Origin: Persicimonas caeni
GTDB taxonomy: Bacteria > Myxococcota_A > Bradymonadia > Bradymonadales > Bradymonadaceae
DNA length: 64,000 nt
Assembly (NCBI RefSeq): GCF_006517175.1
Contig: NZ_CP041186.1
Span: 3,125,074-3,189,073 of the forward strand
Direction of reading: 5' to 3'
Below the pieces are notes generated by a model. That model was not told where the DNA came from, ran no database searches, and saw only the letters and a list, made by a program, of their open reading frames with translations. Positions within the stretch are counted from its first letter, which is position 1, and every line of letters begins with the position of its first letter. The translations under genes were made by a program, and so were the position numbers. Below are positions 4,502 through 61,860 of the stretch, piece after piece.

Positions 4502-4512
4502 CGTTCAGTCCC

Positions 4513-9132: not shown

Positions 9133-9167
9133 GGTGAGGAGTGGTGCAAGGGGTGGGCCAAGCCGGT

Positions 9168-9386: not shown

Positions 9387-9391
9387 AGTAC

Positions 9392-10177: not shown

Positions 10178-10449
10178 GGCAGCTGTCCTACCGTTTCGAT
10201 GGAGCCGATGATCTCTTGGGCGAAGGTCAGCCAATGCTGCAACAGCCAGCCGCTAAGCCCCCACAACACTGCCCCGATGCCCACGATTTTGGGCACGAAG
10301 GTGAGCGTCATCTCGTTGATCTGGGTGGCCGCCTGCAGAATGCTGACAACCAGGCCGATCGCCAGGGCGGCGGCCATGAACGGGCCCCCCAAGAGCACGG
10401 CGACCCACATGGCCTGACGCGCCAATTCACTGACCCACTCGGGACTCAT
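10174..10449 (-). CDS. fliQ: Flagellar export apparatus protein FliQ
   Basis: 91-aa two-TM protein with typical FliQ sequence (LLGGPFMAAALAIGLVVSILQAATQINEMTLTFVPKI). Confidence 0.85.
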   Translation of the reverse strand: MSPEWVSELARQAMWVAVLLGGPFMAAALAIGLVVSILQAATQINEMTLTFVPKIVGIGAVLWGLSGWLLQHWLTFAQEIIGSIETVGQLP

Positions 10450-10450
10450 C

Positions 10451-11287
10451 TCAACCTCCCACGATGCTTCGCGCCAGGCTGCCGATGACCAGGTTCCAGC
10501 CGTCGGCGAGCACGAAGAGCAAGAGTTTGATGGGCAGCGAGACCATGACCGGGGGCACCATCATCATGCCCATGGCCATGAGCACCGAGGCGACGACCAC
10601 GTCGATGACGATGAACGGGATATAGAGCAGCGCGCCCATGATGAAGGCGGTGCGAAGCTCGCTGAGCATGAACGCGGGCACGAGCACCAGGGTGCTCACC
10701 TCGTCGAAGCTCTTGGGCCGCTGCGACTGCGTCATGCTGACGAAGAGGCGCAGGTCTTTGGGCCGGGTGTGGCGCGACATGAACCGGCGAAGGGGCTGCA
10801 CGCCCGCGTCGATGGCCTGTTGGTCGGTCAGTTGGCCGGCGCGGTACGGCTCGATGGCCTGCTCGTTGATGTCCGAGATGACCGGGCTCATCGTAAAGAG
10901 GCACAAAAAGAGGCTCAGGCCGATGAGCACCTGGCTTGGCGGCAGCGCCTGGGTGCCCAGCGCCTGCTTGAGGAAGCCGAGGACCACGACGATGCGCGTA
11001 AAGCTTGTGACGCTGACCAAGAGCGCGGGCAACAGGGTGAGCCCGAGCAGCAAGAAGATGATCTTGAGCACGGGCACCAGGCGCCCATCGCTCTCGCCCA
11101 GGTCGATGCGCACGCCGATGCTGGCGTTGCCTGTGTCGACGGCGTTGGTGTCGATGGTCTGCGCGCCTGTGGCGGCGGCCGCGTTGGCCGGGGCGCCCTG
11201 CGCGCTCGCCGCGACGGGGACCAGGAGCAAGCAGACCGCGATGACGACGGCGCTCAGGAGCAGATAAAAGTGGTGAATCGGGTTCAC
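10451..11287 (-). CDS. fliP: Flagellar export apparatus protein FliP
   Basis: 278-aa ORF with a signal-like N-terminus and conserved FliP core (VPAFMLSELRTAFIMGALLYIPFIVIDVVVASVLMAMGMMMVPP). Confidence 0.85.
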   Translation of the reverse strand: MNPIHHFYLLLSAVVIAVCLLLVPVAASAQGAPANAAAATGAQTIDTNAVDTGNASIGVRIDLGESDGRLVPVLKIIFLLLGLTLLPALLVSVTSFTRIVVVLGFLKQALGTQALPPSQVLIGLSLFLCLFTMSPVISDINEQAIEPYRAGQLTDQQAIDAGVQPLRRFMSRHTRPKDLRLFVSMTQSQRPKSFDEVSTLVLVPAFMLSELRTAFIMGALLYIPFIVIDVVVASVLMAMGMMMVPPVMVSLPIKLLLFVLADGWNLVIGSLARSIVGG

Positions 11288-12204
11288 GACCGCTCCCAGT
11301 TCTTGATGCCGGCCTGGCTCTTGAGCGACTCGAGGCCGCAGACCACGCTGTCCGATTCGAGGTTGGCGCGCGAGGCGCGGCGCAGCTCGCTGCGGGCCTC
11401 ATCGCGAGAGCTTCGGGTATTTCGGGTATTTCGGGTGCTCCGGGAGCTTCGGTCGGCGTCGGTGCGTCGGAAGAGCCCGTCGTGTCCCTCGGGCCTGGGT
11501 CCGGAGTCGATCGCCTCTTGGAGCATCGCCTGCCAGGTATCTTCGTCGCTCTGGCGGGAGGCTGCCTGGCCTAGTGCGGTGGAGCTCAGTGCGGTGGAGC
11601 CGAGTGCAGTGGAGCTGCGGGCTGCGGGAACTGCGTCGAGCTCGGCGAGTACTTGCATGTGGCCGTCGGAGAGGCCGAGCAGGAGCCGACGCCCCTCGAC
11701 CTCGACGATCGTCAGCTGGTGCTTGGTCCCCAGCTTCATGCTGCGAACGTGCTCCATCTCGACGAGCGCGTTCGGGGTCTGGCCGGTGCGGTATTTCTGG
11801 TAGGCCCAGCCGCCCAGCGCGATCAACCCGGCGCCGCCGAAGAGGATCCAGAACGACGACATCGGGACTTCGCCGGCCGGGGTGGCGGGCTTTTGGACCT
11901 CGCCGTCCCCTACGGGTTGGCCGGCGCCCTGCTCGAGCAAGGCGCGGTAGGCGTCGGCGTCCTCGGCTTGCTCGTCGGATGGTGATGGGTCGGCGGGCGG
12001 GTCGGCCGCCACCTTGTCAGCGGCCGGTTTGTCAGCGGCCGGTTTGTCAGCAGCCGGCTTGTCAGCGGCGGCATGATCGGGCTGGGCGGCATCTTTTTCC
12101 GCCCGTGGCTCCGAGTTTTTTGCCGGTTCCTTCGCGCTGGCAGGTACGGCGCTCGCCGCCATCACCAACACGGTGGCCATCATCATCAAAATTCGCAGGT
12201 TCAT
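11284..12204 (-). CDS. fliO: Flagellar biosynthesis protein FliO (with KPAAD low-complexity repeats)
   Basis: Single-TM protein directly upstream of fliP with ATGA overlap. The N-terminus carries (ADKPA)n repeats. The C-terminal part is FliO-like (HVRSMKLGTKHQLTIVEVEGRRLLLG). Confidence 0.6.
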   Translation of the reverse strand: MNLRILMMMATVLVMAASAVPASAKEPAKNSEPRAEKDAAQPDHAAADKPAADKPAADKPAADKVAADPPADPSPSDEQAEDADAYRALLEQGAGQPVGDGEVQKPATPAGEVPMSSFWILFGGAGLIALGGWAYQKYRTGQTPNALVEMEHVRSMKLGTKHQLTIVEVEGRRLLLGLSDGHMQVLAELDAVPAARSSTALGSTALSSTALGQAASRQSDEDTWQAMLQEAIDSGPRPEGHDGLFRRTDADRSSRSTRNTRNTRSSRDEARSELRRASRANLESDSVVCGLESLKSQAGIKNWERS

Positions 12205-12222
12205 TTTCGGCTCCAGCGAGCC

Positions 12223-12612
12223 TCAACCCTTCTTGAGGCTCTCAATCACTTCGTCGGTATCGATGACCGCGGTCAGTCGAATGCCGAAGCGTTCGTTGAC
12301 CACGACCGCCTCACCGCGGGCGATGAGCACGCCGTTGACGCGTACGTCCAGCGGCTCGGTGGCCGCCTTCGACAGCTCGATCATCGATGAGGGACCCAAC
12401 GACAATATCTCGGCGAGGGTCTTGCGGCTTCGGCCCAACTCGACGGTCACCTCGAGGGGGATATCTCCCAGAAACTCGAGGCCGGGCAGGTCGTGCTGCC
12501 CGTCGACCAGGCGCTGGTTATCCAGCCCTGCCTGGTCAGACTGCATGTTCTGTGCCGAACCTTGTCCCGAGGGATCGAAAGCGTTGTTGGCCGGGTTCAT
12601 CTCGTCTTGCAT
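12223..12612 (-). CDS. fliN: Flagellar motor switch protein FliN
   Basis: 129-aa ORF with a C-terminal SpoA/FliN domain (LEVTVELGRSRKTLAEILSLGPSSMIEL...VLIARGEAVVVNERFGIRLTAVI). Confidence 0.85.
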   Translation of the reverse strand: MQDEMNPANNAFDPSGQGSAQNMQSDQAGLDNQRLVDGQHDLPGLEFLGDIPLEVTVELGRSRKTLAEILSLGPSSMIELSKAATEPLDVRVNGVLIARGEAVVVNERFGIRLTAVIDTDEVIESLKKG

Positions 12613-12628
12613 GGCAATATCCTCAGGA

Positions 12629-13675
12629 TCAGGAAGCTTCGTGTAGGGAGGTCAATTCGACGGCCAGGTTGCCGTGGCTCACCGAGATCTGGGCGCGGTA
12701 CTTGGGCCGGCCCTCGATGCTCACGCACACCGGCTCGCTGGCCGACTGGTCCAGGCGCAGCACGTCGCCGGCCTTGAGCGAGGCGAGTTGGCGAAGGGTG
12801 ATATTGGTGCGGCCCAACTCGCCGATGAGCTCGACGGGGAGGCCCGAGGCACGTTGCTTGAGCGTCTGCTGCCAGTCGTGGTCGTCGCGCTCGCTTCGCT
12901 GGTAGCGCCCCGAGGCGAATAGCTCGCGGTAGTCAGCAAGAAGTTCGAAGGGCAGCGCGAAGCTCATCGACCCGCTCTGCGAGCCGAGGTCGATGTTGAA
13001 GGTCGACGCCAGCACCCAGGCCGACGGGCTGGTAAAGGCGATATTCGATGGCGAGGTGTCCACGCGCAGGTGACGCATCGCCACGGGCACCACCGGGCGC
13101 CACGCCTCTTCGACGGCGCGGCCGAAGATGCGCACCAGCCGGCGGATCAAACGCAGCTCGATGGCCGAGAAGCGCTCGCGCTTGGGCGGCGCGGCGTCCG
13201 CGCCCCCGCTCAGGCCGGCGCCGCCGAAGAGGCGCTCGAGCAGGCCGAACAACAACTTCATCTCGATGGAGACCATGCCGTAGCCGTCGAGGGTCTCGAA
13301 CTCGACCAGGTTGTAGCACCCCGGCGATTCGAGCTTGTCGAGCAGCTCGCCCCACGGCTCCATGCCGTCGGCGCGCGCCTCGACGTGGGTCTCGACGTTG
13401 AGCACGTGGGACAGCTCGATGGCCAAGTATTCGGCCACCCGCGCGTCGATGAGCTCGAGGGTGGGCAGCCGGCTGCGCTCGACGCGGCGCTCGCCGGTCA
13501 GGTTGAACGCTCGGTGCTCACGCTCCTCGACGTGGTGGGGCAGGTTCTCGACCAGCGGCGCCGCCTCCTCGACCTCTTCGACAGGAGGCTCGATCGACTC
13601 GGGCAGCGAGAGGCTGGAGTCGGCGGGAAGCTCCTCTGGAGCCTCGCCATCTAAGGGTTCGAATGAAAGATCCAC
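12629..13675 (-). CDS. fliM: Flagellar motor switch protein FliM
   Basis: 348-aa ORF with a CheC-like middle domain and a C-terminal FliN-like domain (LGRTNITLRQLASLKAGDVLRL). Immediately upstream of fliN. Confidence 0.8.
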   Translation of the reverse strand: MDLSFEPLDGEAPEELPADSSLSLPESIEPPVEEVEEAAPLVENLPHHVEEREHRAFNLTGERRVERSRLPTLELIDARVAEYLAIELSHVLNVETHVEARADGMEPWGELLDKLESPGCYNLVEFETLDGYGMVSIEMKLLFGLLERLFGGAGLSGGADAAPPKRERFSAIELRLIRRLVRIFGRAVEEAWRPVVPVAMRHLRVDTSPSNIAFTSPSAWVLASTFNIDLGSQSGSMSFALPFELLADYRELFASGRYQRSERDDHDWQQTLKQRASGLPVELIGELGRTNITLRQLASLKAGDVLRLDQSASEPVCVSIEGRPKYRAQISVSHGNLAVELTSLHEAS

Positions 13676-13688
13676 GACGGGCTCCCGC

Positions 13689-14238
13689 TCACTGCATCAT
13701 GAAGTCAGTGAAATACAGCTGCTGGACGGCGCGCGGCGAGACCACTTTCTTGGCCTCCTCGATGAGCGCCTCGCGCAGCCGGGCTTTGTCCTCCGGCGAG
13801 CGCAACTCGGCGGTGGTATACGCCGACAGCTTGCTCAAGTAGGCGTCGCGCAGGCGCACCTTGACCTCGTCGATCTTGGTGACGGCGTCTTTGTCGGTCG
13901 CCTCCAGGGTGATGCTCACGCGCAAGTAGCGCGGCTCGCCCGGCTCGTTGAGGTTGACCACGAAGGGGTCGAGGGGAACCAGGGGGCCCGGCGTGGCGCT
14001 CGGAGCTGCCTCGACCTCCGCTTCGGCCGGCTCGGCGGCCGCTTCGGGTGGGTTGGCGGCCTGAGCTCCTCCCATCAGCGAGGGGCCCATGAAGAAGAAG
14101 AAGGCCGCCAAGCCCGCGTTCGACACCAAGATGGCGGCGACCACGGCGATGATGACGCCTTTGTTCGATCCGCCCCCGGAGGCCTCGGCGGCCTCTTCGG
14201 CGCCCTCGACGTTTTCCTGCTCGTTATCCTTACTCATT
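13689..14238 (-). CDS. fliL: Flagellar basal-body-associated protein FliL
   Basis: Single-TM protein with a C-terminal FliL domain (FVVNLNEPGEPRYLRVSITLEATD...). Start taken at MSKDNEQENV. The ORF track extends upstream over the motB end in another frame. Confidence 0.7.
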
Positions 14239-15016
14239 TCGGTGCCCCCTGAGGCGTTGAAGAAGTCGGTTCGGCGGCCGGAGGGCCGGTCAAGATACTC
14301 ATTCGCAGTAGATTGCTCTGGCGCAAAAAGCGCTTCTCGCGGCGGCCGGCCTCGTGGCCAAAGCCCATGATGCGCAGCCGGTCGGGCTCGATGCCGCGCT
14401 GCAACAGGAAGCGGGCGACTCCGTCGGCGCGGCGAAGCGCCAGGTCCCAGCCCGCTTCGACCTCCTTGAAGGACTCGCCGCCCTTGGCGTAGGTCTCCAC
14501 GGCGACGTTGAACTGCGGCGGGCCAACCAGACTGACCAGTTGGCGCAAGAAGCGCTGGGCGGCCGGCTGCAACTCGTCGCTCCCCTCTTTGAAGGAGATC
14601 TGCCCGTCGACGTTGATGTGGATGCCCTCGGGCCGGTGCTCGACCCACGCCCGCCCTTCGAGGCCGGTGGCCTTGAAGAGCGCGGAGACCAGCGACTCGA
14701 CCTTCTTCTTGGAGCGCTGTTTGACGGGCATGTTTAGCTCCTTGCGCAGCTCTTCGACCGCCTCGTTCATGGGCGTGCCCGCGATGAGCTCGCGCGTGGA
14801 GACCATCGCCGACTCGCTCTGCTGGGGATCGACCATCAGACCGTCACGCATCGCCTGACGAATCTGCTGGTCGTCGAGGCTCGACATGGTCAGCAGCAGC
14901 ACGAAGAAGGTGAGCATGAGCATCAACAGGTCGGAGAACGTCGACATCCACGCGTTGGGATCGCCGGTCGGCCCCGACGGCTTCGAGCCTCCACGTTTGT
15001 CACGTCGGCCCATCAC
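14234..15016 (-). CDS. motB: Flagellar stator protein MotB (OmpA-like peptidoglycan-binding domain)
   Basis: N-terminal TM plug region (WMSTFSDLLMLMLTFFVLLLTMSS) and a C-terminal OmpA-like domain. Confidence 0.75.
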   Translation of the reverse strand: MMGRRDKRGGSKPSGPTGDPNAWMSTFSDLLMLMLTFFVLLLTMSSLDDQQIRQAMRDGLMVDPQQSESAMVSTRELIAGTPMNEAVEELRKELNMPVKQRSKKKVESLVSALFKATGLEGRAWVEHRPEGIHINVDGQISFKEGSDELQPAAQRFLRQLVSLVGPPQFNVAVETYAKGGESFKEVEAGWDLALRRADGVARFLLQRGIEPDRLRIMGFGHEAGRREKRFLRQSNLLRMSILTGPPAAEPTSSTPQGAPK

Positions 15017-15696
15017 GAACCTCCCTTGCGCACCGGCGGCAAGAAGACGACCTCGACGCGGCGCTGCTGGGTCTCACCGGTGCGCAACGGGCGAGTGGCG
15101 CCGTAGCCGGCGGCGGTCAACATGTCGGCGGGCACCCCGGCGGCGTGGTGCAGGTAGCGGTACACCGCCGCGGCGCGCGCGGCCGACAGGTACCAATTCG
15201 ACTGCGGCCCCGAGCTGGGGACCACGTCGGTGTGCCCCTCGACGCGTACCGGAAAGCCCACGCGCACGATGAGATCGGCCAGCCCGTCGAGCTGCGGAAA
15301 GCTTCGCGGGTTGATGCGCTGGCTGCCCGAGGCGAATAGGAGCCGGCTCTCGAAGCGAATTACCACCCGGCCGTCGCTGCGCTCGGCGACGTTGGCGCCC
15401 TGCAGGTCGTGAATCTCGAGCAGGGCCTGCACGCGGCGTTTGAGGTTTTGGGGCTGCTTGCGTGACTTCTTCTTGTGGGGCATCTCGGGGCCGAACTCCC
15501 CCTGCTTGAAGCCGGGGAGCACGCCGAAAGTACCGATCAACGAGTTGAGCACGATGCGGCTTCGGGCCTCGTCGATGGTCGCCAGGCTGTTGAGCATGAT
15601 GAAGAAGGCCAACAGGATCATCGACAGCGCCGTAAAGAGCACGATGAACTCGTCGCTTTTCGGCTCGTCCTCTTTTTTCTTTCTGCGTCGTCCCAT
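15013..15696 (-). CDS. Second MotB/OmpA-family stator protein (paralogue)
   Basis: TM segment FIVLFTALSMILLAFFIMLNSLA plus an OmpA-like C-terminus (SGSQRINPRSFPQLDGLADLIVRVGFPVRVEGHTD...YGATRPL). It overlaps both neighbouring genes by 4 bp. Confidence 0.7.
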   Translation of the reverse strand: MGRRRKKKEDEPKSDEFIVLFTALSMILLAFFIMLNSLATIDEARSRIVLNSLIGTFGVLPGFKQGEFGPEMPHKKKSRKQPQNLKRRVQALLEIHDLQGANVAERSDGRVVIRFESRLLFASGSQRINPRSFPQLDGLADLIVRVGFPVRVEGHTDVVPSSGPQSNWYLSAARAAAVYRYLHHAAGVPADMLTAAGYGATRPLRTGETQQRRVEVVFLPPVRKGGS

Positions 15697-15704
15697 GATC
15701 TGGC

Positions 15705-16496
15705 TCAGCCGTTGTCACTGCGTTGGGAGGGCGGAAGCTCGACTTCGAGTTGCTGGGCCAGGATGCGCGGGTTCTCGCCGCGGGCGATGCCCATCAAGCC
15801 CTTGACGACGAGCGCCTTGGCCTGCAGCTCCTCTTGGTGGCGAATGCGCAATTTGCCGGCCACGGGGGTGAACACGACGTTGGCCAGAAGCGCGCCGTAG
15901 AAGGTGGTCAGAAGGGCGACGGCCATCGCGGGGCCGATCGCCGAGGGGTCTTCCATGTTCTGGAGCATGTTGACCAGACCGATGAGCGTACCGACCAGAC
16001 CGAGTGCGGGCGCCGAGGAGGCGAAGGTCTCGAAGATCTGGGCGCCCGTGCCGTGGCGAGTCTCCATGCCCTCGAGCTCGTCGTACATCAGGTCTTCGAT
16101 CTTCTCGGGCTCGATGCCGTCGACCAGAAGCTGCACGCCGCGCTTCATGAAGTCGTCCTCGATGCTCGACAGGCTGCCTTCGAGCGACAAGATCCCTTCT
16201 TTGCGCGCCGTGTCGGCGAACTCGATGATCTGGGTGTTCTGCTCGCTGATGTCGGGCACCTCGTAGCGAAATACGTTGATGGCGACCTTCATGGCCGAGA
16301 GCACCCGGGCCATCGGGAAGCTGATCAAGCCGACGCCGAACGTACCGCCGACCACGATCATCATGCTGGGCACGTCCAAGAAGGAGGTCAGCGAACCGCC
16401 GGTGAGAATACTACCGATGATGAGGCCGAAGGCGGCCACCAGGCCAATGATGGTTGCGATGTCCACGACTGCGTCTCTCTCTCCTGAGGCAGACAA
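15705..16496 (-). CDS. motA: Flagellar stator protein MotA (MotA/TolQ/ExbB proton channel family)
   Basis: 263-aa four-TM protein with a conserved C-terminal channel region (PALGLVGTLIGLVNMLQNM...ALLTTFYGALLANVVFTPVAGKL). Confidence 0.8.
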   Translation of the reverse strand: MSASGERDAVVDIATIIGLVAAFGLIIGSILTGGSLTSFLDVPSMMIVVGGTFGVGLISFPMARVLSAMKVAINVFRYEVPDISEQNTQIIEFADTARKEGILSLEGSLSSIEDDFMKRGVQLLVDGIEPEKIEDLMYDELEGMETRHGTGAQIFETFASSAPALGLVGTLIGLVNMLQNMEDPSAIGPAMAVALLTTFYGALLANVVFTPVAGKLRIRHQEELQAKALVVKGLMGIARGENPRILAQQLEVELPPSQRSDNG

Positions 16497-16698
16497 TCAA
16501 ACAGTTCCGGGCCCGAGTTGGAGCAAACTCCGTACCAGCCCGAAAACAAAGTTCGTGCTCCGCTCGCACACCCCGTAGAAGGCCTACTCGGAAAATTGTG
16601 CCGGATCCGAAGGTGGATTTTTTGCCGGGTGGGTAGGGATCGCGCCTGGCGCCAAGACCCACGACCTCACGACGCCACGACCTCACGACTCCAGCCGT

Positions 16699-16714
16699 TG
16701 GCACACCCCTTGCT
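16699..16714 (+). promoter_or_regulatory. Sigma-54 (-24/-12) promoter: TGGCAC-ACCCC-TTGCT
   Basis: Exact TGGCAC-N5-TTGCW match about 20-80 nt upstream of the first plus-strand gene of the signalling operon. It lies in the divergent intergenic region next to motA. Confidence 0.6.
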
Positions 16715-16795
16715 AGTTGTTCGGCACGTCAACGAGTGCCCCGCGCCGACCGAGTCGAACGCGGACGATTTCAAGGGTCTTCGCCCCAGACACAC

Positions 16796-17242
16796 ATGAA
16801 CTCCCGATCGATCGAATTACTCCGCCGCGTGCGCGACACCGAGATGGCCGACGCGGTTCGCGCCGTCAGCCGCGCCCGCCAGGCGGTCGAGCAGGCCGAG
16901 CAGAAGCTCGACCAACTGATCAGCCAGCGCGACGACTTCCGCCAGCAGGTGCGCGCGCAATTCGAGAGCGGCGTGCCTCAGCGTGAGATGACTTTGCTCC
17001 ACCGCCAGATGGACTCGTTCGACCGGCAGGTCGAGATGCAGCGACGCGAGCTCAGCCGCCAGTACGGCCAGCTCGAAGAGGCGCGCGAGCACCAGATGGA
17101 GCTGGCGATGGTGCTCAAACAGCAAGAGCGCCTCGAAGAGCGACTGGCGGCGATGCGCCGCAGCGAAGACCGCGCCCGCGAGCAGCGCCAGCTCGACGAG
17201 CTAGGAGCCCAATCCGTGTACCGCTGGAACCTGTCGGACTGA
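16796..17242 (+). CDS. Coiled-coil protein, FliJ-like (flagellar export chaperone family) - tentative
   Basis: About 150 aa, entirely helical and charged, with Q/E/R-rich heptads like FliJ. Start taken at MNSRSIELL (ORF track begins at 16736). No strong motif, so the call rests on size, composition and context. Confidence 0.35.
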   Translation: MNSRSIELLRRVRDTEMADAVRAVSRARQAVEQAEQKLDQLISQRDDFRQQVRAQFESGVPQREMTLLHRQMDSFDRQVEMQRRELSRQYGQLEEAREHQMELAMVLKQQERLEERLAAMRRSEDRAREQRQLDELGAQSVYRWNLSD

Positions 17243-38770: not shown

Positions 38771-38980
38771 CATCTTCCTCCCCCGCGTAGCGAGGGGAGG
38801 ACCGAGGAGGGGCGTCCCTTTCCATGTAGCGAAGCGAAATGGAGAGGGATTCAGGGAGAGGCCCCTACTACAATCGCCCGCAAGCAATCCGCCCCCCGCT
38901 ACGGGCAACGCACGTCGGCTACGCCTCCGTGCTCGCCCGCAGCTAAAAGTTCGTATCACCCACAAGGGGTTCGAGGACGA
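38771..38980. repeat. Composite repeat: half of a family-A element (catcttcctcccc...ggaggaccgaggagg) followed by a family-B element (ccgctacgggcaacg...ctcgcccgcagctaaaagttcgtatcacccacaaggggttcgagg)
   Basis: Sequence identity to 48056-48265 and to the B copies at 39285 and 39455. Confidence 0.8.
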
Positions 38981-39096: not shown

Positions 39097-39395
39097 TGCC
39101 GCGTACCGAAATCAAAGAGCAAGCCCACAAACTTGTCGATGAACTACCAGACGACGCGACTTGGGAGGACCTCGAGTACAAGATCTATGTGCGTCGCAAG
39201 ATAGAGCGTGGCCTCGAGAGTATCGAGAAGGGAGAGACCGTGAGTACCGATGAGGTACGCGCACGCTTCGGACTGGATAAGAGAAGCTACGGGCAACGCA
39301 CGTCGGCTACGCCTCCGTGCTCGCCCGCAGCTAAAAGTTCCGTATCACCCACAAGGGGTTCGAGGTTGGAGTCCTGGCAGGAGAATGCATTTTGA
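39097..39395 (+). CDS. Small antitoxin-like/addiction-module-like protein (about 60-aa native core; C-terminal about 36 aa read through a repeat element)
   Basis: AGGAGG 7 nt upstream of ATG. The core MPRTEIKEQAHKLVDELPDDATWEDLEYKIYVRRKIERGLESIEKGETVSTDEVRARFGLDK resembles small antitoxin-type proteins. The reading frame then continues into the family-B repeat copy. Confidence 0.4.
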
Positions 39396-39542
39396 GCCGT
39401 CCGGAGCCTGTTGCTCAATTGTCTCGAACGGGCCGTTTGGGCAGGACCGACGATCGTGGAACCCCTTGTGGGTGCAAAAGAATTTGTAGCTGCGGGCGAG
39501 CGAGGCGTCCCGAAGGGCGCCGAGAGTTGCCCGTAGCGGGGT
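39285..39542. repeat. Family-B repeat pair in inverted orientation (39285-39366 direct, 39455-39542 inverted) forming a long hairpin with about 90-nt spacer
   Basis: cccacaaggggttcgagg ... cctcgaaccccttgtggg arms and the agctacgggcaacg.../...cgttgcccgtagc outer arms. Confidence 0.8.
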
Positions 39543-48010: not shown

Positions 48011-48055
48011 TCACACAAACGAGCCCCCATCTTGCCCGGAGACACCGCGCCAAGG

Positions 48056-48265
48056 CAACATCTTCCTCCCCTGCGCGAAGCACAGCGGAGCGTAGGGGAG
48101 GACCGAGGAGGGGACTCCTCCTCCGCGAAGCAACGCGAAGTGGAGGAGGACCGAGGAGGAGGCCGGGCTCCATAATCGAACCCCGCTACGGGCAACGCTC
48201 GACTCCCTCCGGTCGCCTCGCTCGCCCGCAGCTACAAGTTCCGTTTCACCCACAAGGGGTTCGAG
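48056..48265. repeat. Composite repeat: family-A half-element + family-B element (second copy of the 38771-38980 arrangement)
   Basis: caacatcttcctcccctgcgcgaagca...ggaggaccgaggagg followed by ccgctacgggcaacgctcg...cccgcagctacaagttccgtttcacccacaaggggttcgagg. Confidence 0.8.
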
Positions 48266-48504
48266 GCTGTCGGCCCCGCAAGAAATCACGTCCCGCGCCG
48301 GTCGAAGCCAGACGCACAAGCGCCCAGGACCGCCGCACCTACAGGGCCGGAGGTTGTGGTGGATGAGCCGGTCGGGCCGGTCGAGCCGGTTGGGGTGTAG
48401 GACTCCCAGCCAGGTTGACCGGCCCCCGGGGCGGCCTACGCCGCCCGGCCCCCCGCCGCTCATTGAGCACACATAAATCCGTGTACTGGCCAAGAGGCCA
48501 ACTC

Positions 48505-48675
48505 AGTGCCCGTGACCGCGCCCGCGCCCGCGACCGCGCCCCGTTGTTGAACTGCCAAGAGGTCGCCACTGGCGTTTGCTTCGAACCCACCCGATTTGCT
48601 CGTCTGAAACCACAACGCATCTTCGAAGGCCTTGCAGCTCTAAACGGCGGGGCGCGGTCGCGGTCACGGTCGCGG
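48505..48675. repeat. Inverted repeat of about 30 bp (cccgtgaccgcgcccgcgcccgcgaccgcgccccg / cggggcgcggtcgcggtcacggtcgcggg) enclosing an about 100-bp loop
   Basis: Complementarity is visible directly. It lies in a 680-bp region with no convincing ORF. Confidence 0.6.
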
Positions 48676-48699
48676 GTTCGAATCGACCGTCGCCGCCAA

Positions 48700-48864
48700 T
48701 TAAGTAACTGCACGAAGATTCTGCGGTCATCTCGGCGGTTCTGAGCGCCAATGACTGCGTTGCTTCTTCTCGACGATGCGCTGCATCGCCTCGGCGTCGC
48801 GCCTTGTCCTTGACACTCAGTCCTCGCCGAGGCTTTCCCGCACAATCTCCGTGCAGTTACTTAG
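48700..48864. repeat. MITE-like element family E (about 165 bp; terminal inverted repeats ttaagtaactgcacgaagattctgcgg / ccgcacaatctccgtgcagttacttag)
   Basis: A second copy in opposite orientation lies at 50304-50472, with about 80 % identical internal sequence. Confidence 0.75.
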
Positions 48865-48969
48865 AAACTCCTGATCAATCATGAGCCGCTCCGTGCGCGG
48901 GGGGCAGCGTAGCGAACCTCTCATACCTTCAACTACAACACCTCGACGCCACCCACCCCAACGAGTAAG

Positions 48970-49968
48970 ATGGCCGCCATGAAATACGCCATCACACTCG
49001 TCATACTCGCCGCCGGTCTCACCCTCGCCACAGGTTGCGGCTCCGATGCCGACTCCACGCAGCAGAACACGGGCGACGCCGGCCAATCCGATACAACTCA
49101 GACCGATACAAACCAGCCTGACACGAATCAGCAGGACGCAGGCGGCGACGCGGCGCTCGCGCCGCCGTGGGATGCGAGCGCGCCGTTGGGCGGCGACCGT
49201 CCGGCGCGGGTGATCTTGCCCAACGCCTACGACCGCACGCAGAGCTGGCCGCTGGTCGTGTTGCTGCACGGGTACACGGCCACCGGGCCGCTGCAGGATG
49301 CCTATTTCGGGTTGAGCCGGCGTGGCGACGAGCGTGGGTTTATCACCGTGCTGCCCAACGGGACGCAGGACGGGGCGGGCAACCGGTTTTGGAACGCGAC
49401 CGACGCGTGCTGCAACTTCGGGGGGAGCAGCGTCGACGACGTGCAGTACCTGAGTGACCTGCTCGCCGAGGCCAAAGAGCGCCTGGCGGTCGACGCCGAC
49501 CGGGTCTACTTCATGGGGCACTCCAACGGCGGGTTCATGAGCTACCGGATGGCCTGCGAGCTCGGCTCCGAGATCGCGGCCATCGCCAGCCTGGCGGGCA
49601 GCGCGTTCGACGACGCGCAGGATTGCGCCGAGAACGGGCAGGTGGGCGTGCTGCAGATCCACGGCGACGCCGACGAGACCGTGCTGTACGACGGCGGCCA
49701 ATTCGCCGGCAACGCCTACCCCGGCGCGCGCGAGGTCGCCGAGCGCTGGGCGGCCAGAAACGGCTGCGACGCCCAGGCGCAGACCGGCGAGGCGGCCGAT
49801 CTCGACAAGGATGTCGACGGCGCCGAGAGCGATATCGAGCAGTGGGGTGGGTGCGAGGCCGACCGGCGCGTGGAGCTGTGGAGCATCCGCGGCGGCGGGC
49901 ATATCCCGAGCCTGAGCGACGATTTTACCGACCGGGTGCTCGACTTTTTGTTCGCGCACAGCCGATGA
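48970..49968 (+). CDS. Secreted alpha/beta-hydrolase, PHB-depolymerase-type esterase lipoprotein
   Basis: Signal plus lipobox (ITLVILAAGLTLATGCGSD), T/Q/D-rich linker, nucleophile elbow GHSNGG and the esterase core VVLLHGY...FMGHSNGGFMSY. Confidence 0.75.
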   Translation: MAAMKYAITLVILAAGLTLATGCGSDADSTQQNTGDAGQSDTTQTDTNQPDTNQQDAGGDAALAPPWDASAPLGGDRPARVILPNAYDRTQSWPLVVLLHGYTATGPLQDAYFGLSRRGDERGFITVLPNGTQDGAGNRFWNATDACCNFGGSSVDDVQYLSDLLAEAKERLAVDADRVYFMGHSNGGFMSYRMACELGSEIAAIASLAGSAFDDAQDCAENGQVGVLQIHGDADETVLYDGGQFAGNAYPGAREVAERWAARNGCDAQAQTGEAADLDKDVDGAESDIEQWGGCEADRRVELWSIRGGGHIPSLSDDFTDRVLDFLFAHSR

Positions 49969-49977
49969 GGAGCGAAA

Positions 49978-50170
49978 AAGCTAACGAGCGAAGCAGGGAA
50001 TGAGCGAAGAAGGGAATGAGCGAAGAAGGGAATGAGCGAAGAAGGGAATGAGCGAAGAAGTGAATGAGCGAAGAAGGGAATGAGCGAAAAAGAGAATGAG
50101 CAGAACAGGTAATGAGCGAAAAAAGGAATGAGCGAAAAAGGGAATGAGCAGAACAGGTAACGAGCAAAAA
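49978..50170. repeat. Tandem array of about 12 copies of a 16-bp unit (gaatgagcgaagaagg) with 3' degeneration
   Basis: Directly visible perfect copies, then diverged copies (gaatgagcgaaaaaga, gaatgagcagaacagg). Confidence 0.9.
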
Positions 50171-50303
50171 AGGCGCGCAAATTCTGCCTACGCGGCGCGC
50201 TGACGAAAATATTGCCTACCTCGAACGGCGCTGGAGACCTCTCTAGCGCCGTTTTTCGTGGCACACGCCTTGCATCGCCTTTCTACGGTTTAAATCCACC
50301 CCG

Positions 50304-50472
50304 ATTAAGTAACTGCACGGAGATTGTGCGGGAAAGCTCGGCGAGCAATCGGCGGCAAGCACAAGGAGACAGCCCGCAGGCGATGCCAGCGGCATCGTCG
50401 AGGGATGGCGACGCAGTGATTGGCGTCGAGAGCCGCCGAGATGACCGGCAGAATCTTCGTGTAGTTACTTAA
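50304..50472. repeat. MITE-like element family E, inverted copy
   Basis: ttaagtaactgcacggagattgtgcgg ... ccggcagaatcttcgtgtagttacttaa. The internal sequence is the reverse complement of the 48727-48837 interior. Confidence 0.75.
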
Positions 50473-50489
50473 CCAAGATGAGGTAAGGC

Positions 50490-50885
50490 ATGGCATTTAT
50501 CGACTGGAAAGAATCGTACAACACCGGCGTTGGCCCCATCGACGAGCAGCACCAGAAGCTCGTCGAGCTCATCAACGAGCTGCACTCGGCGATGAAGCAG
50601 GCCAAGAGCAAAGAAGTCATCGGCGACGTGATCGGTGAGCTGGCCAAGTACACCCAGTATCACTTCACCGACGAAGAGAAGTACATGCAGCGGGCCAACT
50701 ACCCGAAGCTGCTCGAGCACAAAAAGGAGCACGACGACTTCGTGGCCCACGTCAGCGATTACAAAGGCCGCTTCGACCGCGGCGAGGTGATGCTGTCGAT
50801 CGACGTGCTCAACTTCTTGCAGGATTGGCTCGTCGACCACATCGAGGGCAGCGACCAGGATTACGTCAGCTACGTCAAAGGCTGA
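50490..50885 (+). CDS. Bacteriohemerythrin
   Basis: 131-aa ORF with hemerythrin signatures (WKESYNTGVGPIDEQHQKL, HFTDEEKYM, EHKKEHDDF, LQDWLVDHI). Confidence 0.85.
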   Translation: MAFIDWKESYNTGVGPIDEQHQKLVELINELHSAMKQAKSKEVIGDVIGELAKYTQYHFTDEEKYMQRANYPKLLEHKKEHDDFVAHVSDYKGRFDRGEVMLSIDVLNFLQDWLVDHIEGSDQDYVSYVKG

Positions 50886-51151
50886 CGTTCACGAGTACGT
50901 CTGACCTCTTCGGAGCGTCGGCGTATCGCTGCGCAGCGCGCCCTCACCGCGCTGCGCGGCTCTTGCTTGCTGTCCGCACGCACTTGCTTTCCGCACGCAC
51001 CTGCCCCCCTGCATCCTTTAGAACGCCCGAGTCCTTCGGAAAGCCCCCGCCTCGGCGCATCGCTTTTGAATATCGACGGTCGCGACACGTCTCACCGGCC
51101 CCTGCCGGATTTTGCTCGTGTTGATGATTGACTTGTTTGGGACCGATTCAA

Positions 51152-53254
51152 ATGCGCTACCGTGCTTGTTGTGCCGCCCTCGGTTTATTCGCCCTACTCA
51201 CTGTGTCCGCCGGATGCTCCGAGGATTCGGGCGGCGGGACGGACGCGCCGCTCGACGGCGGGTCCGGTGCGGACGCCGCGGCTGACGTGGGCGACGTCGG
51301 CGACGACGCAGCCGACACGTCCGATCCGGGCGACACCGGCGTCGACGCGACCGATGCGGCGGACGCCGACAGTTCGTCCGACTCCGGGGATGCGGCCGAC
51401 GCCTCCGACACCGCGGAGGACGTCGAAGAGGACACCACGCCCGCCGCCGAGTGCGGCAACGGCGTGCGCGAAGAGGGCGAGGCGTGCGACGGCGACGATA
51501 TCCCCGAGGCGTGCACGGGGTGGAGCGAGGCGGTGTCGTGCACGGCCAGCTGCGAGTTGACCCCGTGTCGGGGCAGGCTCACGATCACGCCGAGCACCCA
51601 GGGCCAGGTCGACCTGGCCAAGGTCACCGCGGACGGCCAGACGCTCTTCTTCTACACCTCGGCGGGCGGCGACCTCGTCGACTGGCACTCGCTCGATCTG
51701 GCGACCGGCAACGTCACCCCGGTGGCCTCGGGGCTCGACGAAGACTTCGCCGCCGTCTACCCGAGCTCCACCGGTGAGCACGCGGTGCTCTACGAGTTCT
51801 TGTCGCCCTTCAAGGTGTGGACGAAGTCGACCGGCGCGCTGGTCGACTTGACGGTCGATCCCGTCGAAGACCAGCTCTACGTGTACGACCACGCCCTGGC
51901 CTATCTCGAGGAGCGCGGCAACAGCCGCCGCGAGCACGCCCTGCATGTGTTCGACTACGCCAGCGGCCAGACCACCGAGGTGCTCGACAACGTCTACGAA
52001 CCGTACGGAAGGCTGCGGGTCAGCCCCGACGGGCGCTACATGGCGGTGTGGACGCAGGCGGACTTCGACGCCCCATTCGAGATGCACGTCGTCGACCTGA
52101 CCACCGCCAGCGTGCTGGCGAGCGACTCGAGCCGCGACACGGTGCGCGGGCGCTTCTCGCCGACCGGCGAGGCGTTCGTCTTCGAGAAGAACTCGGGCCT
52201 GGCGGTGTGGTTTGCGGCGACGAACACCATCGAGGAGGCCCCCAACGGCGGCGGCACCGTCCTGGAGGCGCGGTTCTCGCCCGACGGCTCGCTTCTGGCC
52301 TACGCCGACCCGGTCAACAGCACCAACAAGGACTACGAGAGCTGGTTGTGGGACTTGCAGGCCAACACCGACACCGCGTTGAGCGATCGAGCGGGCACGC
52401 GCTTCGACTTCTCGCCCGACGGCACCAAGCTGGCCCATTTGAGCACCCGCAGCCCGAGCTTGCGAGACAGCGCCGAGCTGCGCATTCGCGACCTGACCAC
52501 GCAGACCGATATCGTCGTGGCTGACGGCGTGGCCCACGAGCACGTCACCTGGAGCCCGTCGAGCGACGCGGTGGCCTTCGCCGACCCGACCTCCAACTAC
52601 ATCTACGCCGAAGAAGACTTGCGCGTCGCCGAGCTGGCCAACGGGGCGGCCACTGTCCACGACGTGACCCGCGGCGGCTCGGCCCGCGCGGTGTGGCACC
52701 CCGACTCCGAAGGCCTGTTCTGGATTACCGCCCAGAGCCAGGTGCAGAGCAAGCGCTTTGGCTACTGGCAGCGCGCCTCGCAGCAGACCACCGAGTTGCT
52801 CGACGAGTTGCGCCAGAGCTTTTCGGTGATCGTCAACGCCACCTGGGATCACGTCCTGGGCGTCTTCCCGGGCACCGGGCTCAACCCGGGCGCGCCCATC
52901 ACCGCCTTCGCCCCCGACACCCAGACGACCACCGAGCTGTCGGCCTCCGACCGCTTCCGCGCCGAGTGGTTCGACGGAGGTTCGCCCCACTCGGCCGCCT
53001 GGACCGGCCAGGGTCAGTGGTTGGGGCCGACCTCGCGGTTTGTGAGCTGGCGAGAGCGCGACGAGGAGTTCGACGGCACCGGCCCGCTGGACGTGTTCGA
53101 CCTGGCCACCGGCACCACCAGCAGCGTGCCGCTGCTGCTGAGCGATGAGGCCCGGCTCAACGACCACATGCACGGGTCGGACGCCGTGGCGGTCGTGGAG
53201 TTATACCGCCCGCAGTATACGAACACTTATACGTTCTGGATCTATCGGCCGTAG
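51152..53254 (+). CDS. Lipoprotein with acidic linker, Cys-rich module and TolB/WD40-like beta-propeller
   Basis: Signal plus lipobox (LGLFALLTVSAGCSED), a D/A/S/T-rich linker, an ECGNGVREEGEACDGDD Cys-rich module, then repeated (R)FSPDG...(L)A(Y/F) motifs typical of TolB-like propellers. Confidence 0.7.
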   Translation: MRYRACCAALGLFALLTVSAGCSEDSGGGTDAPLDGGSGADAAADVGDVGDDAADTSDPGDTGVDATDAADADSSSDSGDAADASDTAEDVEEDTTPAAECGNGVREEGEACDGDDIPEACTGWSEAVSCTASCELTPCRGRLTITPSTQGQVDLAKVTADGQTLFFYTSAGGDLVDWHSLDLATGNVTPVASGLDEDFAAVYPSSTGEHAVLYEFLSPFKVWTKSTGALVDLTVDPVEDQLYVYDHALAYLEERGNSRREHALHVFDYASGQTTEVLDNVYEPYGRLRVSPDGRYMAVWTQADFDAPFEMHVVDLTTASVLASDSSRDTVRGRFSPTGEAFVFEKNSGLAVWFAATNTIEEAPNGGGTVLEARFSPDGSLLAYADPVNSTNKDYESWLWDLQANTDTALSDRAGTRFDFSPDGTKLAHLSTRSPSLRDSAELRIRDLTTQTDIVVADGVAHEHVTWSPSSDAVAFADPTSNYIYAEEDLRVAELANGAATVHDVTRGGSARAVWHPDSEGLFWITAQSQVQSKRFGYWQRASQQTTELLDELRQSFSVIVNATWDHVLGVFPGTGLNPGAPITAFAPDTQTTTELSASDRFRAEWFDGGSPHSAAWTGQGQWLGPTSRFVSWRERDEEFDGTGPLDVFDLATGTTSSVPLLLSDEARLNDHMHGSDAVAVVELYRPQYTNTYTFWIYRP

Positions 53255-53545
53255 AGCTTGGAGGCAGCGCATCTTGCGCTGGGTGCATTGGCGCGCGCTC
53301 CTGCTACCAGCGCTGGAAGCGCTGCCTCCAAACGGCGCCGTAGAGCTTGGAGGCAGCGCATCTTGCGCTGGGTGCATTGGCGCGCGCTCCTGCTACCAGC
53401 GCTGGAAGCGCTGCCTCCGAACGGCGCTGGAAGCGCTGCCTCCAAACAGCGCCGTAGAGCTTGGAGGCAGCGCATTTTGCGCTGGTTGCATTGGCGCGCG
53501 CTCCTGCTACCAGCGCTGGAAGCGCTGCCTCCAAACGGCGGCGAC
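53247..53545. repeat. Tandem array of 3 copies of a about 92-114-bp palindromic unit (family D; gtagagcttggaggcagcgcatcttgcgctgggtgcattggcgcgcgctcctgctaccagcgctggaagcgctgcctccaaacggcgcc)
   Basis: Three consecutive near-identical copies. Each unit is itself an inverted repeat (ggaggcagcgc ... gcgctgcctcc). A related single unit lies at 55690-55775. Confidence 0.9.
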
Positions 53546-53646
53546 GGGACCGGAGCTCTCACCGAGTCGCCGCGCCACGGTTGTCGAGCGCGGCGACTCG
53601 ACGTAGGATGGGCGGTCCGGAATTGAAACTACGATGAGTGACGAAA

Positions 53647-54279
53647 ATGAAGAACAGAATCCCCTCGAAGCTCCATCTTCTGCTGATCCTCACCTTTGTG
53701 CTCGCCCTGGCCGCTTGCTCCGACGACGCGACGAGCGGCACGCAGACGAGCGACGTTGCCCTCGAAGAGGACGCCGCCTCGGCGTCGGACGCGAGCGATA
53801 TGGCCGCGCGAGACACGGATGAAAAAGATGCCGGCGAAGAGGATACCGGCGAGCAGGATGCGGGAGACGAGGATACCGGCGCGCAGGATGCGGGCGCGGA
53901 CGATACTGGCGTCCAGGATTCGGGCGCGGAAGATACCGGCGTCCAAGATTCGGGGACCCAGGATGTGGGTCAGCAGGATACCGGCCAGCAGGATACCGGC
54001 CAGCAGGACGCGGGCATCGACTCCGGCCTGAGCTGCACACCCGGCGACACCAAGCAGGTCGAATGCAACACCTGCACGTGCACCCAGCAGCAGGTGTGGA
54101 GTTGCACCAAGATGGCGTGCCCCGGCGGCCCGTACGACCCGTGCGAGAACAAGAGTTGCGGCGAGACCTGCACGCTGTGCGATCCCGCCGACCCCAACTG
54201 CAGCGAGACCGCCGTGGTCAAGTATTGCGACGAGAACGGCAACTGCAGCGCGCAGAACTCGCCGCAATGCAGCATTTGA
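53647..54279 (+). CDS. Cys-rich secreted lipoprotein with (DTGxQD)n acidic repeats
   Basis: Lipobox LTFVLALAACSDD, repeats EDTGEQDAGDEDTGAQDAGADDTGVQDSGAEDTGVQDSGTQDVGQQDTGQQDTGQQDAG, then a 14-Cys module (CTPGDTKQVECNTCTCTQQQVWSCTKMACPG...CDENGNCSAQNSPQCSI). A GTG at 53638 is an alternative start. Confidence 0.7.
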   Translation: MKNRIPSKLHLLLILTFVLALAACSDDATSGTQTSDVALEEDAASASDASDMAARDTDEKDAGEEDTGEQDAGDEDTGAQDAGADDTGVQDSGAEDTGVQDSGTQDVGQQDTGQQDTGQQDAGIDSGLSCTPGDTKQVECNTCTCTQQQVWSCTKMACPGGPYDPCENKSCGETCTLCDPADPNCSETAVVKYCDENGNCSAQNSPQCSI

Positions 54280-54282
54280 GGC

Positions 54283-55572
54283 TCACAGCTCCAAGTCGAC
54301 CCACACCAGGTGATGGTCGGAGACGTCGACGAGCTCGGCCTGCGGCTGGCCGGGCGCGGGCCAGAACACTCCGCTGTCGGTGACCGACAGGCCCTGTGAG
54401 GGCAGCGCGTAGTCGACGCGCAGGTTGCCCACGCGGCCGTCGCTGAAGTCGGCGGTGTCGAGCGCGTGGTCGCCTTCGTGCTCGGCGTTGGCCCGGCCCT
54501 GGTCTTCGCCGGCCTGCGCGCCGCCCTCGCTGGTGGGCTGCGGGTCCTGGGCGAAGGCGAGCAGGTCGACGAGCGCGCCGCGCCGGCTGTCGCCGTCTTT
54601 CGGGTCGGTGTTCAGATCTCCCACCACCACAAACTCGGCGCCGTCGGCGAGCCCGCCGGCCACGCCGCTATCGTCGACCAAATAGGCCGCCTGCTCGCCG
54701 CCGGTGACGTAGTCGAGCCACAGGCGAACCTCGTCGTGATTGCGCCGCCCGTTTCGGTCCTCGGGGCCGTCGAAGGCCGGCGGGGTCGGGTGACTCGCCA
54801 GCACGTGCACGGTCGTGCCGTCGATCTCGACGGGCACGTCGACGTGGTTCTTCGACGACAGGCGCATCACGTCCTTGGCCTCCTCCGAGTAGAAGTCGGC
54901 GGGCATCTGCGAGTCGGGCATCTCCTTCCACAAGAACTCTTGAAAGCTGCGGATCGCGTCGGTCGCGATGGGATAGCGCGAGTAGATGACCATGCCGTAT
55001 TGGCCCGTAAACTGGCCGTAGCCGTACGAGTCGTTGCCGTAGGCGTTGCTGCCCGGCTCGGTGGTCGCCTGGCCGTCGCCGTCGAGGTCGACGCCCGACG
55101 ACAGGCCGGTGTTGGTCGCCGGCACGTAGCGGTGGGCGTAGTCGAGGGCCTCTTGGCCGGCCTGGCCTACTGCCAAATACTCCTCTTGGAAGATCCGCGC
55201 GGCCTCGCCGTCGGCGTCCCAGTCGAACTCGTTGATGAGGACGACGTCGGGGCGCACGCGCTGCAGGACCTCGGCGACCTCTTTGGCCTGGGCGTCCTGG
55301 CCGCCGGCGAGGTCGTCGGCGAGTTGGCCGGCCTGCTGGCGGTAGAGCGAGGCGTTGTAGGTGGCGACGCGGACGGTGGTGGGGGCACTGGTGGTGTCTT
55401 GCTGGGTTGCGTCCTGCTGGGTTGCGTCCTGCTGGGTTGCGTCCTGCTCGGTCGTATCCTGCTCGCCGGCGTCGGCCTGGGCGTTGGAGTCGTCGACGGT
55501 GTTGTTCTCGCTGGCGCAGGCGGTCAGGGTGGCGCACAGGGCGAGGGTGAGGAGGTGGTGCTTGCGGATCAT
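54283..55572 (-). CDS. Secreted endonuclease/exonuclease/phosphatase (EEP) family lipoprotein
   Basis: Lipobox LALCATLTACASE, (QDAT)n linker, and EEP motifs (VRVATYNASL, VVLINEFDWD, VVGDLNTDPKDGDS, SDHHLVWVDLEL). Confidence 0.75.
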   Translation of the reverse strand: MIRKHHLLTLALCATLTACASENNTVDDSNAQADAGEQDTTEQDATQQDATQQDATQQDTTSAPTTVRVATYNASLYRQQAGQLADDLAGGQDAQAKEVAEVLQRVRPDVVLINEFDWDADGEAARIFQEEYLAVGQAGQEALDYAHRYVPATNTGLSSGVDLDGDGQATTEPGSNAYGNDSYGYGQFTGQYGMVIYSRYPIATDAIRSFQEFLWKEMPDSQMPADFYSEEAKDVMRLSSKNHVDVPVEIDGTTVHVLASHPTPPAFDGPEDRNGRRNHDEVRLWLDYVTGGEQAAYLVDDSGVAGGLADGAEFVVVGDLNTDPKDGDSRRGALVDLLAFAQDPQPTSEGGAQAGEDQGRANAEHEGDHALDTADFSDGRVGNLRVDYALPSQGLSVTDSGVFWPAPGQPQAELVDVSDHHLVWVDLEL

Positions 55573-55689
55573 GTTGTTTCTCGGGGGGTTGGGTGAGCTT
55601 GGCGGGGAGGACTATAAGGGAGGCGTGGGATTTTGGCGACCATTATCGTTTTTTTGGGGCGGGGACGCCCCTGAGGCTGTCACTAAAGG

Positions 55690-55775
55690 TCGCCATAGTT
55701 TGGAGGCAGCGCTTCTAGCGCTGGTTGCATGAGCGTACGGGCTTGCAACCAGGGCAAGATGCCCGGCCTCCAAAG
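55690..55775. repeat. Family-D single unit (gtttggaggcagcgcttctagcgctggttgcatgagcgtacgggcttgcaaccagggcaagatgcccggcctccaaa)
   Basis: Shares the ggaggcagcgc core with the 53247 array and the gggcaagatgccc motif with family C. Confidence 0.7.
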
Positions 55776-59654: not shown

Positions 59655-59905
59655 CTTTCGGTGCGAGTGCATCCCTGCTCTCGCTCACGAGGGCGAGATG
59701 CCCACGCACCGAACACTTCGCGCGCTATCGGTGCGAGTGCTTCCAGCTCTCGCGTTTTGTTTGTAGTCACAGCTTTCCGTCGCCCCCCATCCGCCCTTCG
59801 CTTCGCTACGGGCACCTTCCCCCCGGGGGAAGGGATGCCCTCGCCGCATTGTGGCGTGGTCGGTTGTTGGGGGAGATTCTGCGTGGCGTTGTTATTCTAC
59901 GACCG
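59655..59905. repeat. Family-C repeat, left copy (about 250 bp; contains gagggcgagatgcccacgcaccgaa sub-repeats and the cttcgcttcgctacgggcaccttccccccgggggaagggatgcc palindrome)
   Basis: An inverted, more than 85 % identical copy lies at 61595-61860. Confidence 0.85.
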
Positions 59906-61594: not shown

Positions 61595-61860
61595 GAGACT
61601 ATCAGCCGCCCAAGTCGCCACAAGCGAAAAAAACTACACCCCCAACAACCGACCACGCCACAACGCGCTAAGGCATCCCTTCCCCTGGGGGAAGGTGCCC
61701 GTAGCGAAGCGAAGGGCGGATGGGGGGCGACGGAAAGCTGTGACTACAAACAAAACGCGAGGGCAAGATGCCCCCGCACCGAACACATCACGAGGGCAAG
61801 ATGCCCACGCACCGAATCCACAGCGCCGCGAATTTACACGATCCCCCGTCTGTGTCATCA
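61595..61860. repeat. Family-C repeat, right copy (inverted relative to 59655-59905)
   Basis: Its reverse complement aligns with the left copy through gcgttttgtttgtagtcacagctttccgtcgccccccatccgcccttcgcttcgctacgggcaccttcccc...gggaagggatgcc...ttgtggcgtggtcggttgttggggg. Confidence 0.85.

Follow-up and report, generated by a model that had tools for sequence, protein, structure and literature searches.

Within the analyzed window, that is, the whole stretch of 64,000 nucleotides from the chromosome of Persicimonas caeni YN101 (CP042468.1; 8,047,206 bp), an esterase gene of the polyhydroxybutyrate (PHB)-depolymerase type is bracketed by two related elements of about 160 bp, called E1 and E2 here and together family E, and is followed by a hemerythrin gene. 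YN101 is the type strain of Persicimonas caeni (PMC7188933), and the label given by its depositors is Bradymonadales strain YN101 (PMC7460792). The GC content of the host genome is 65%. The locus was first described from the letters alone, in what we call the sequence-only reading, as resembling either a composite mobile cassette or a gene insulated or terminated by flanking hairpins. Our analysis indicates that E1 and E2 are very probably two separate insertions of a nonautonomous miniature inverted-repeat transposable element (MITE), each with a duplicated TA, around an esterase gene that was already resident. Comparisons were made with two environmental contigs, a Logan contig of 1226 bp (L004) and a JGI contig of 6472 bp (L003). 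The features of the locus are as follows.

48701 to 48702, no strand: left TA duplication of E1, from the comparison with L004
48703 to 48861, plus strand: E1, a 159-bp noncoding MITE, an imperfect palindrome over its full length; absent from L004
about 48703 to 48726 and 48838 to 48861: terminal inverted repeats of E1, AGTAACTGCACGRAGATTSTGCGG
48862 to 48863, no strand: right TA duplication of E1, from the comparison with L004
48970 to 49968, plus strand: esterase, a resident alpha/beta-hydrolase of the PHB-depolymerase type with a lipoprotein-like signal, LTLATGC
49970 to 50173, plus strand: 16-bp purine-rich tandem array, unit GAGCGAAGAAGGGAAT, 12.8 units by Tandem Repeats Finder, in the 3' untranslated region of the esterase gene
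50224 to 50258, plus strand: intrinsic-terminator-like hairpin with a 14-bp stem and a 2-nt loop (50224 to 50253), then TTTTT
50306 to 50307, no strand: left TA duplication of E2, from the comparison with L003
50308 to 50469, minus strand: E2, a 162-bp MITE of the same family as E1, in opposite orientation; absent from L003
50470 to 50471, no strand: right TA duplication of E2, from the comparison with L003
50480 to 50488, plus strand: ribosome-binding site of the hemerythrin gene, GAGGTAAGG, from the sequence; E2 lies in its immediate 5' region
50490 to 50885, plus strand: hemerythrin gene (Pfam Hemerythrin, 2e-19)

The two elements are clearly members of one family. With the duplicated TA included, the outer bounds are 48700 to 48864 for E1 and 50305 to 50472 for E2; the sequence-only reading had placed both elements and their matching terminal inverted repeats correctly, except that the start of E2 moves from 50304 to 50305. 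The termini of E1 and E2 have inverted repeats of 24 to 26 nt in common, and AGTAACTRCACGRAGATT is found at all four ends. All four termini also fit TTAAGTAACTGCACG with at most one mismatch, so that the 64 kb contain four matches where 0.41 are expected, and no shuffled sequence out of 100 reached four. Pairing of the terminal inverted repeats extends over 26 nt at 92% complementarity in E1 and over 39 nt at 82% in E2. In global alignment, E1 is 84% identical to the reverse complement of E2 and 66% identical to E2 in direct orientation, which confirms that the two were rightly described as lying in opposite orientations. Self-complementarity is 68 to 72% for each element, and each is predicted to fold as a single near-full-length hairpin, at -78.2 kcal/mol (z score, -8.2) for E1 and -100.3 kcal/mol (z score, -12.2) for E2.

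At 159 to 162 bp, the elements are too short for any transposase gene. Stops interrupt four of the six reading frames of E1, the other two being open beyond the first one or two codons, and several frames of E2 are open across the whole element. No protein matched the translations of E1 and E2 when seven of the 12 frames were searched as one query, and frame +0 of E2 had no match among 1.84 billion protein representatives. No Rfam family was matched at the locus; the only sub-threshold hit was a meaningless microRNA match, on the terminator. In their size, their terminal inverted repeats, the target-site duplication seen by comparing occupied with empty sites, and their lack of coding capacity, E1 and E2 have properties by which MITEs are recognized.

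The empty sites came from relatives of YN101. Searching for homologs of the esterase brought up such relatives at graded distances, and the closest protein (P0001, 96% identical) is encoded on both L003 and L004. L004 shows 96 to 97% DNA identity to the window on both sides of E1, and L003 is collinear with window positions 48940 to 55665 at 94 to 95.5% identity. A more distant relative (L008 to L010) carries an esterase that is 74% identical and, upstream of it, a 381-amino-acid lipoprotein that is 78% identical, both at the protein level.

At the E1 site, the window reads gccgccaaT-TA-(159 bp)-TA-Gaaactcc, and L004 has a single TA between the same flanks, gccgccaaT-TA-Gaaactcc, that is, gtcgccgccaaT-TA-Gaaactcctgatc. 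At the E2 site, the window reads ccccgaT-TA-(162 bp)-TA-Accaagatgagg, and L003 reads ccccgaC-TA-Accaagatgagg, again with a single TA; the longer reading of this empty site in L003 is ccccgaC-TA-Accaagatgaggtaagg. BLAST connects window position 50308 to 50470 through L003 with a 3-nt overlap, and the junction was taken from the BLAST coordinates and from direct reading, as the gap placed there by MAFFT was misplaced and was left unused. A single TA in the relatives against TA-element-TA in YN101 argues that E1 and E2 entered separately, each with a TA duplication. Read in this way, the ends of the elements become perfectly symmetrical (AGTAACTG...CAGTTACT), and the TA duplication is also the most parsimonious solution, requiring no change at E1 and a single difference in the flank of E2. 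A TTA duplication of 3 bp fits almost equally, and a 4-bp YTAR duplication requires more changes. The target context is YTAR-like at both sites, with TTAG at E1 and CTAA at E2. Such precise single-TA empty sites in near-identical relatives bear out the MITE label that the sequence-only reading had given to the elements.

The same relatives show that the esterase was in place before either element arrived. The gene order in L003 is that of the window, namely, esterase, hemerythrin, PD40 propeller, Pacifastin-domain protein, and Exo_endo_phos protein, and the hemerythrin gene, 97% identical to that of YN101, directly follows the empty E2 site. In L008 to L010, the two divergent genes, for the 381-amino-acid lipoprotein and for the esterase, are 113 bp apart, whereas the window has 959 bp between them; the short spacer, in L008, is not reliably alignable at the E1 site and shows only that no 159-bp element fits there. 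The esterase therefore predates both E1 and E2, since L003 keeps the esterase-hemerythrin adjacency and the spacer of L008 to L010 is too short for E1. A check proposed with the first description, whether relatives have the esterase at this locus, thus has a positive answer: it is present in L003 and L004, and in L008 to L010 it stands beside the same upstream gene. Esterase homologs of 60 to 67% identity lie in unrelated contexts and were uninformative, and a hemerythrin homolog search for further haplotypes of the site added nothing beyond the L003 ortholog and distant proteins whose surroundings were unrelated. The esterase is a single-copy gene (CP042468.1), with no near-identical paralog. 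By Pfam it matches Esterase_PHB at 28.6 bits (cutoff, 23), and Esterase and Peptidase_S9 are also weak but above the cutoff. In the Persicimonas caeni lineage, the esterase, the 16-bp array, the terminator, and the hemerythrin gene all belong to the resident chromosome, and the esterase is not cargo.

Divergence among the strains and between the elements bears on the source of the insertions. At 4-fold-degenerate sites, YN101 and L003 differ by 3.6% in the esterase gene, by 2.3% in the hemerythrin gene, and by 7.1% over four genes together. The divergence between E1 and E2 is about 16%. Given the low divergence of the strains, E2 is not a recent copy of E1 if both insertions postdate the strain split. 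If the elements are not copies of each other, their sources would be different, already diverged members of the family, and other copies exist or existed.

In the mechanism that we propose, a transposase encoded elsewhere would recognize the terminal repeats and act in trans, and the element would insert at a TA in a YTAR-like context, with duplication of the TA. Duplication of TA is a signature of IS630/Tc1-mariner-type enzymes. Judged from the TA duplication alone, the mobilizing enzyme would most likely be a DDE transposase of this type; an IS5-type duplication of 3 bp (TTA) would fit nearly as well. The bracketing of the esterase would then be a by-product of two independent hits. Insertion on both sides of one gene may be explained by the few AT-containing noncoding stretches in a genome with 65% GC, and the inverted orientation may have persisted because direct repeats would favor deletion of the intervening gene.

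Several points weigh against two MITE insertions as the explanation of the locus. Family E is known from two copies only, which lie 1.4 kb apart, and each empty site is known from one contig only. The base that precedes the E2 duplication is T in YN101 and C in L003, and the polarity at the E2 site, insertion in YN101 or precise loss in L003, is without an outgroup. A 20-nt terminus (TAAGTAACTGCACGRAGATT) matched the GTDB representative genomes, a set that possibly does not cover the host genome beyond the window, only once, in a Nevskia metagenome-assembled genome, and no autonomous element or insertion sequence (IS) with matching AGTAACTGCACG ends was found in the scans made. The Nevskia match has no partner terminus nearby and was taken as chance, with about two matches expected at random by our own estimate. 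Family E is either very small or beyond the reach of that scan. A family-E profile built from E1 and E2 (nhmmer) found only the two known copies in the window, in a further 17.5 kb of host DNA adjoining its edges, and in 13 loci from relatives. Metagenomes were scanned twice, once for one terminus alone and once for the pair of termini with N{120,150} between them, and gave no match; viral contigs, plasmids, and phages gave none either. No transposase gene was present among the called genes, Pfam labels, and listed open reading frames of the approximately 81 kb of host DNA examined, which comprises the 64-kb window and the 17.5 kb at its edges.

The explanation that survives best beside separate insertion is that both elements are ancestral and were lost in the relatives, either through precise excision or through slippage between the TA repeats. 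The 16% divergence of E1 and E2 is far above the flank divergence of 2 to 7%, so the elements are possibly old, and long hairpins promote deletion. However, this history needs two independent clean losses on a 2-bp repeat, the 113-bp spacer of the relative with 74 to 78% identity cannot hold E1, and no E copy turned up in the metagenome and genome scans or at the loci of relatives. Because of the two clean losses required and the short spacer, we regard ancestral loss as less likely than insertion, and unlikely in itself; it stays more open for E2, whose site is without an outgroup, than for E1.

Separate insertion is also better suited to the data than a second explanation, in which the elements are conserved, nonmobile hairpins (insulators, terminators, or attenuators) selected for control of the esterase and hemerythrin genes. 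Their structures are very stable and stand at gene boundaries, with E2 beside the hemerythrin ribosome-binding site. Against this, strains that are approximately 95% identical are without the elements but otherwise share the genes and spacers, and a terminator belonging to the esterase already stands before E2; for these reasons we reject the suggestion of conserved insulating or terminating hairpins. The transposon-type ends, the duplication, and a consensus scan that gave no promoter-like site likewise speak against it, and we consider it improbable.

A REPIN-like element, moved by a RAYT (an IS200/IS605-type tyrosine transposase), would account for a full-length intergenic hairpin in a genome that is rich in other palindromic repeats. 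The dinucleotide duplication is clear at both sites, however, and the terminal inverted repeats are long, with arms that are not REP-like palindromes; no RAYT gene was seen in the same 81 kb, which is weak evidence. Such an origin is thus very doubtful. The composite transposon or cassette, in which inverted MITEs would move esterase and array as a unit, draws on two same-family inverted elements around a single gene and on the precedent of MITE-flanked integron mobilization (Gillings 2009 and Poirel 2009, as they appear in the reference list of PMC11602168), but it is scarcely credible and we reject it, because the esterase predates the elements, standing at the same locus in relatives without E1 (L004) or E2 (L003) and keeping its upstream neighbor in the 74 to 78% identical relative, E1 and E2 each carry a separate TA duplication and differ by 16%, and each genome has a single esterase locus with no near-identical paralog.

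The position of the elements suggests that they might nevertheless touch the genes beside them. The end of E2 lies 8 nt from the GAGG of the hemerythrin ribosome-binding site, which agrees with the earlier observation that the downstream copy adjoins this site, and 18 nt from the ATG at 50490. In context, E2 is predicted to fold independently and to leave the ribosome-binding site free. No sigma-70 consensus promoter was found by scanning the locus and the empty-site spacer, and the hemerythrin promoter was therefore not located. The leader between E1 and the esterase is 105 bp long, and E1 would put a stable hairpin that distance upstream of the esterase start; E2 would separate the esterase terminator from the hemerythrin ribosome-binding site by a hairpin of about -100 kcal/mol. 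By analogy with Correia and ERIC elements, the E2 hairpin could change the stability or processing of the hemerythrin mRNA, provided that it is transcribed, and incidental effects of E1 and E2 on expression are possible. A bolder proposal, to which we give little weight, is that E2 has rewired hemerythrin expression in YN101, as a 5'-leader target of RNase III or as a stabilizer, and that together with E1 it makes the esterase segment invertible or mobilizable. Were this true, MITEs would have driven regulatory change in a predatory member of the Bradymonadia, in a natural case resolved at the strain level.

Between the elements, the content had been given as only the esterase and the 16-bp array; both are there, but a terminator-like hairpin is present as well. 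The array begins directly after the esterase stop codon in YN101. In L003 it has about 7.4 units and the stop codon falls within the first of them, and the array is absent from the 74% identical relative L008. The GAGCGAAGAAGGGAAT unit occurs at no other site in the window. As RNA, the array is predicted to be unstructured (z score, +1.69), and it carries about 12 GGGAAU/GGA motifs. Lying in the 3' untranslated region of the esterase gene, the array is a variable-number tandem repeat; it could serve as a binding platform for an RNA-binding protein or could reflect plain slippage. The terminator hairpin is the sole stable structure in the centroid fold of 49960 to 50270, it is kept in L003 at 1492 to 1521, and it probably marks the end of the esterase transcript.

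The region around the locus is crowded with other repeats. The 959-bp spacer upstream of the esterase (48011 to 48969) is a pile-up of unrelated repeats in which E1 comes last. Positions 48017 to 48162 belong to a family rich in GGAGG/GCGAAGC, with further members at 2785 to 3068, 3468 to 3751, 9173 to 9371, and 38793 to 38861. A partial copy of the palindromic element at 39319 to 39516 follows at 48205 to 48262, and a GC-rich hairpin of 171 nt (-88.7 kcal/mol; z score, -3.65) lies at 48506 to 48676. Positions 48344 to 48432 hold a 90-bp remnant of a plus-strand gene (L003 1 to 291), with 94% identity to its 3' end and terminator; this gene is intact directly upstream of the esterase in L003, and the remainder of it is missing in YN101. 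L003 is also without window positions 48433 to 48939, which L004 has. With these differing flanks in YN101, L003, and L004, close strains show no fewer than three structural states of the 5' flank of the esterase. In the more distant relative, L008 (2245 to 2348), L009, and L010 all end about 100 bp past the esterase, inside a GCGAAGC/GGAGAGG-type repeat like that at 48017 to 48162, which suggests a repeat family that is common throughout the group and interrupts assemblies from short reads.

Farther downstream, a palindromic element of about 78 to 114 nt follows the propeller gene in three tandem copies at 53255 to 53545, where L003 has half a copy, and one inverted copy of the element lies 2.1 kb away at 55689 to 55774, so that the set brackets two genes. 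Another inverted pair of one family, the third in the window, occupies 59728 to 59873 and 61639 to 61782 (106 nt at 92% and 53 nt at 77%) and brackets about 1.8 kb. In total, the window has three cases of inverted same-family repeats that flank one or two genes. At the opposite end, positions 1 to 17000 and the DNA beyond (L015) hold a large flagellar and chemotaxis cluster with FliP/Q/R, FlhA/B/F, FliA, FlgB-N, flagellin, and MotA/B-like proteins, in a host described as a predator.

No paper that mentions MITEs together with Bradymonadales was found in the literature. The elements add an orphan MITE family with a TA duplication to the class Bradymonadia, and the environmental contigs supply a clean comparison of occupied with empty sites. 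In the 8-Mb genome of P. caeni, the long intergenic regions are recent pile-ups of palindromic repeats that vary between strains of approximately 95% identity. Such pile-ups bear on assembly breaks, on strain typing, and possibly on strain-specific gene regulation. For the esterase itself, the tempting reading as mobile cargo is removed. As a whole, the result has little import beyond annotation.

Bacterial MITEs are typically shorter than 200 bp and have terminal inverted repeats, a terminal TA, target-site duplications, and long stem-loops (PMC2229807, PMC10969869). Against this background, the integron mobilization units flanked by MITEs resemble the E1/E2 locus in that two copies of one MITE bracket a gene. 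They differ from it in that the whole segment was inserted, whereas at the E locus the gene is older than both elements. The ERIC/IRU and YPAL elements of enterobacteria are, like E, intergenic imperfect palindromes, of 127 to 168 bp, and they are cotranscribed with their neighbors and can alter mRNA stability (PMC2229807, PMC10969869). Their sequences are unrelated to E, however; the terminal repeats of ERIC are short, and YPAL is without TA ends and has variable duplications.

Closer likenesses are found in two other groups. RUP of Streptococcus pneumoniae and IS630-derived MITEs such as the cyanobacterial Nezha are nonautonomous, with terminal inverted repeats and a duplicated TA, as in E (PMC2229807). 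RUP has been tied to IS630-Spn1 through its TA targets, and such elements move in trans through an IS630-family transposase (PMC2229807); the suggested IS630 link of E comes from the duplication alone. For RUP the matching IS is known (IS630-Spn1), and for family E no parent IS was found. The Correia elements of Neisseria (CREE/NEMIS) share with E a length of about 105 to 160 bp, terminal inverted repeats of about 24 to 26 bp, a TA duplication, an intergenic location, a long RNA stem-loop, and strain-specific presence or absence beside genes (PMC2229807, PMC2649163, PMC10969869). Correia and ERIC elements influence promoters and processing by RNase III and RNase E (PMC10969869, PMC2649163). 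Correia elements number more than 100 copies, in contrast to the two copies of E seen here, and E is GC-rich and has a host in the Myxococcota, class Bradymonadia. To our knowledge, the Correia termini have no sequence similarity to those of family E. The likeness that we claim is one of architecture and not of sequence membership, and the promoter, integration host factor (IHF) site, and RNase III cleavage features of Correia elements are not claimed for E. In architecture and probable mechanism, family E appears to stand closest to the Correia/NEMIS elements and to IS630-derived MITEs such as RUP.

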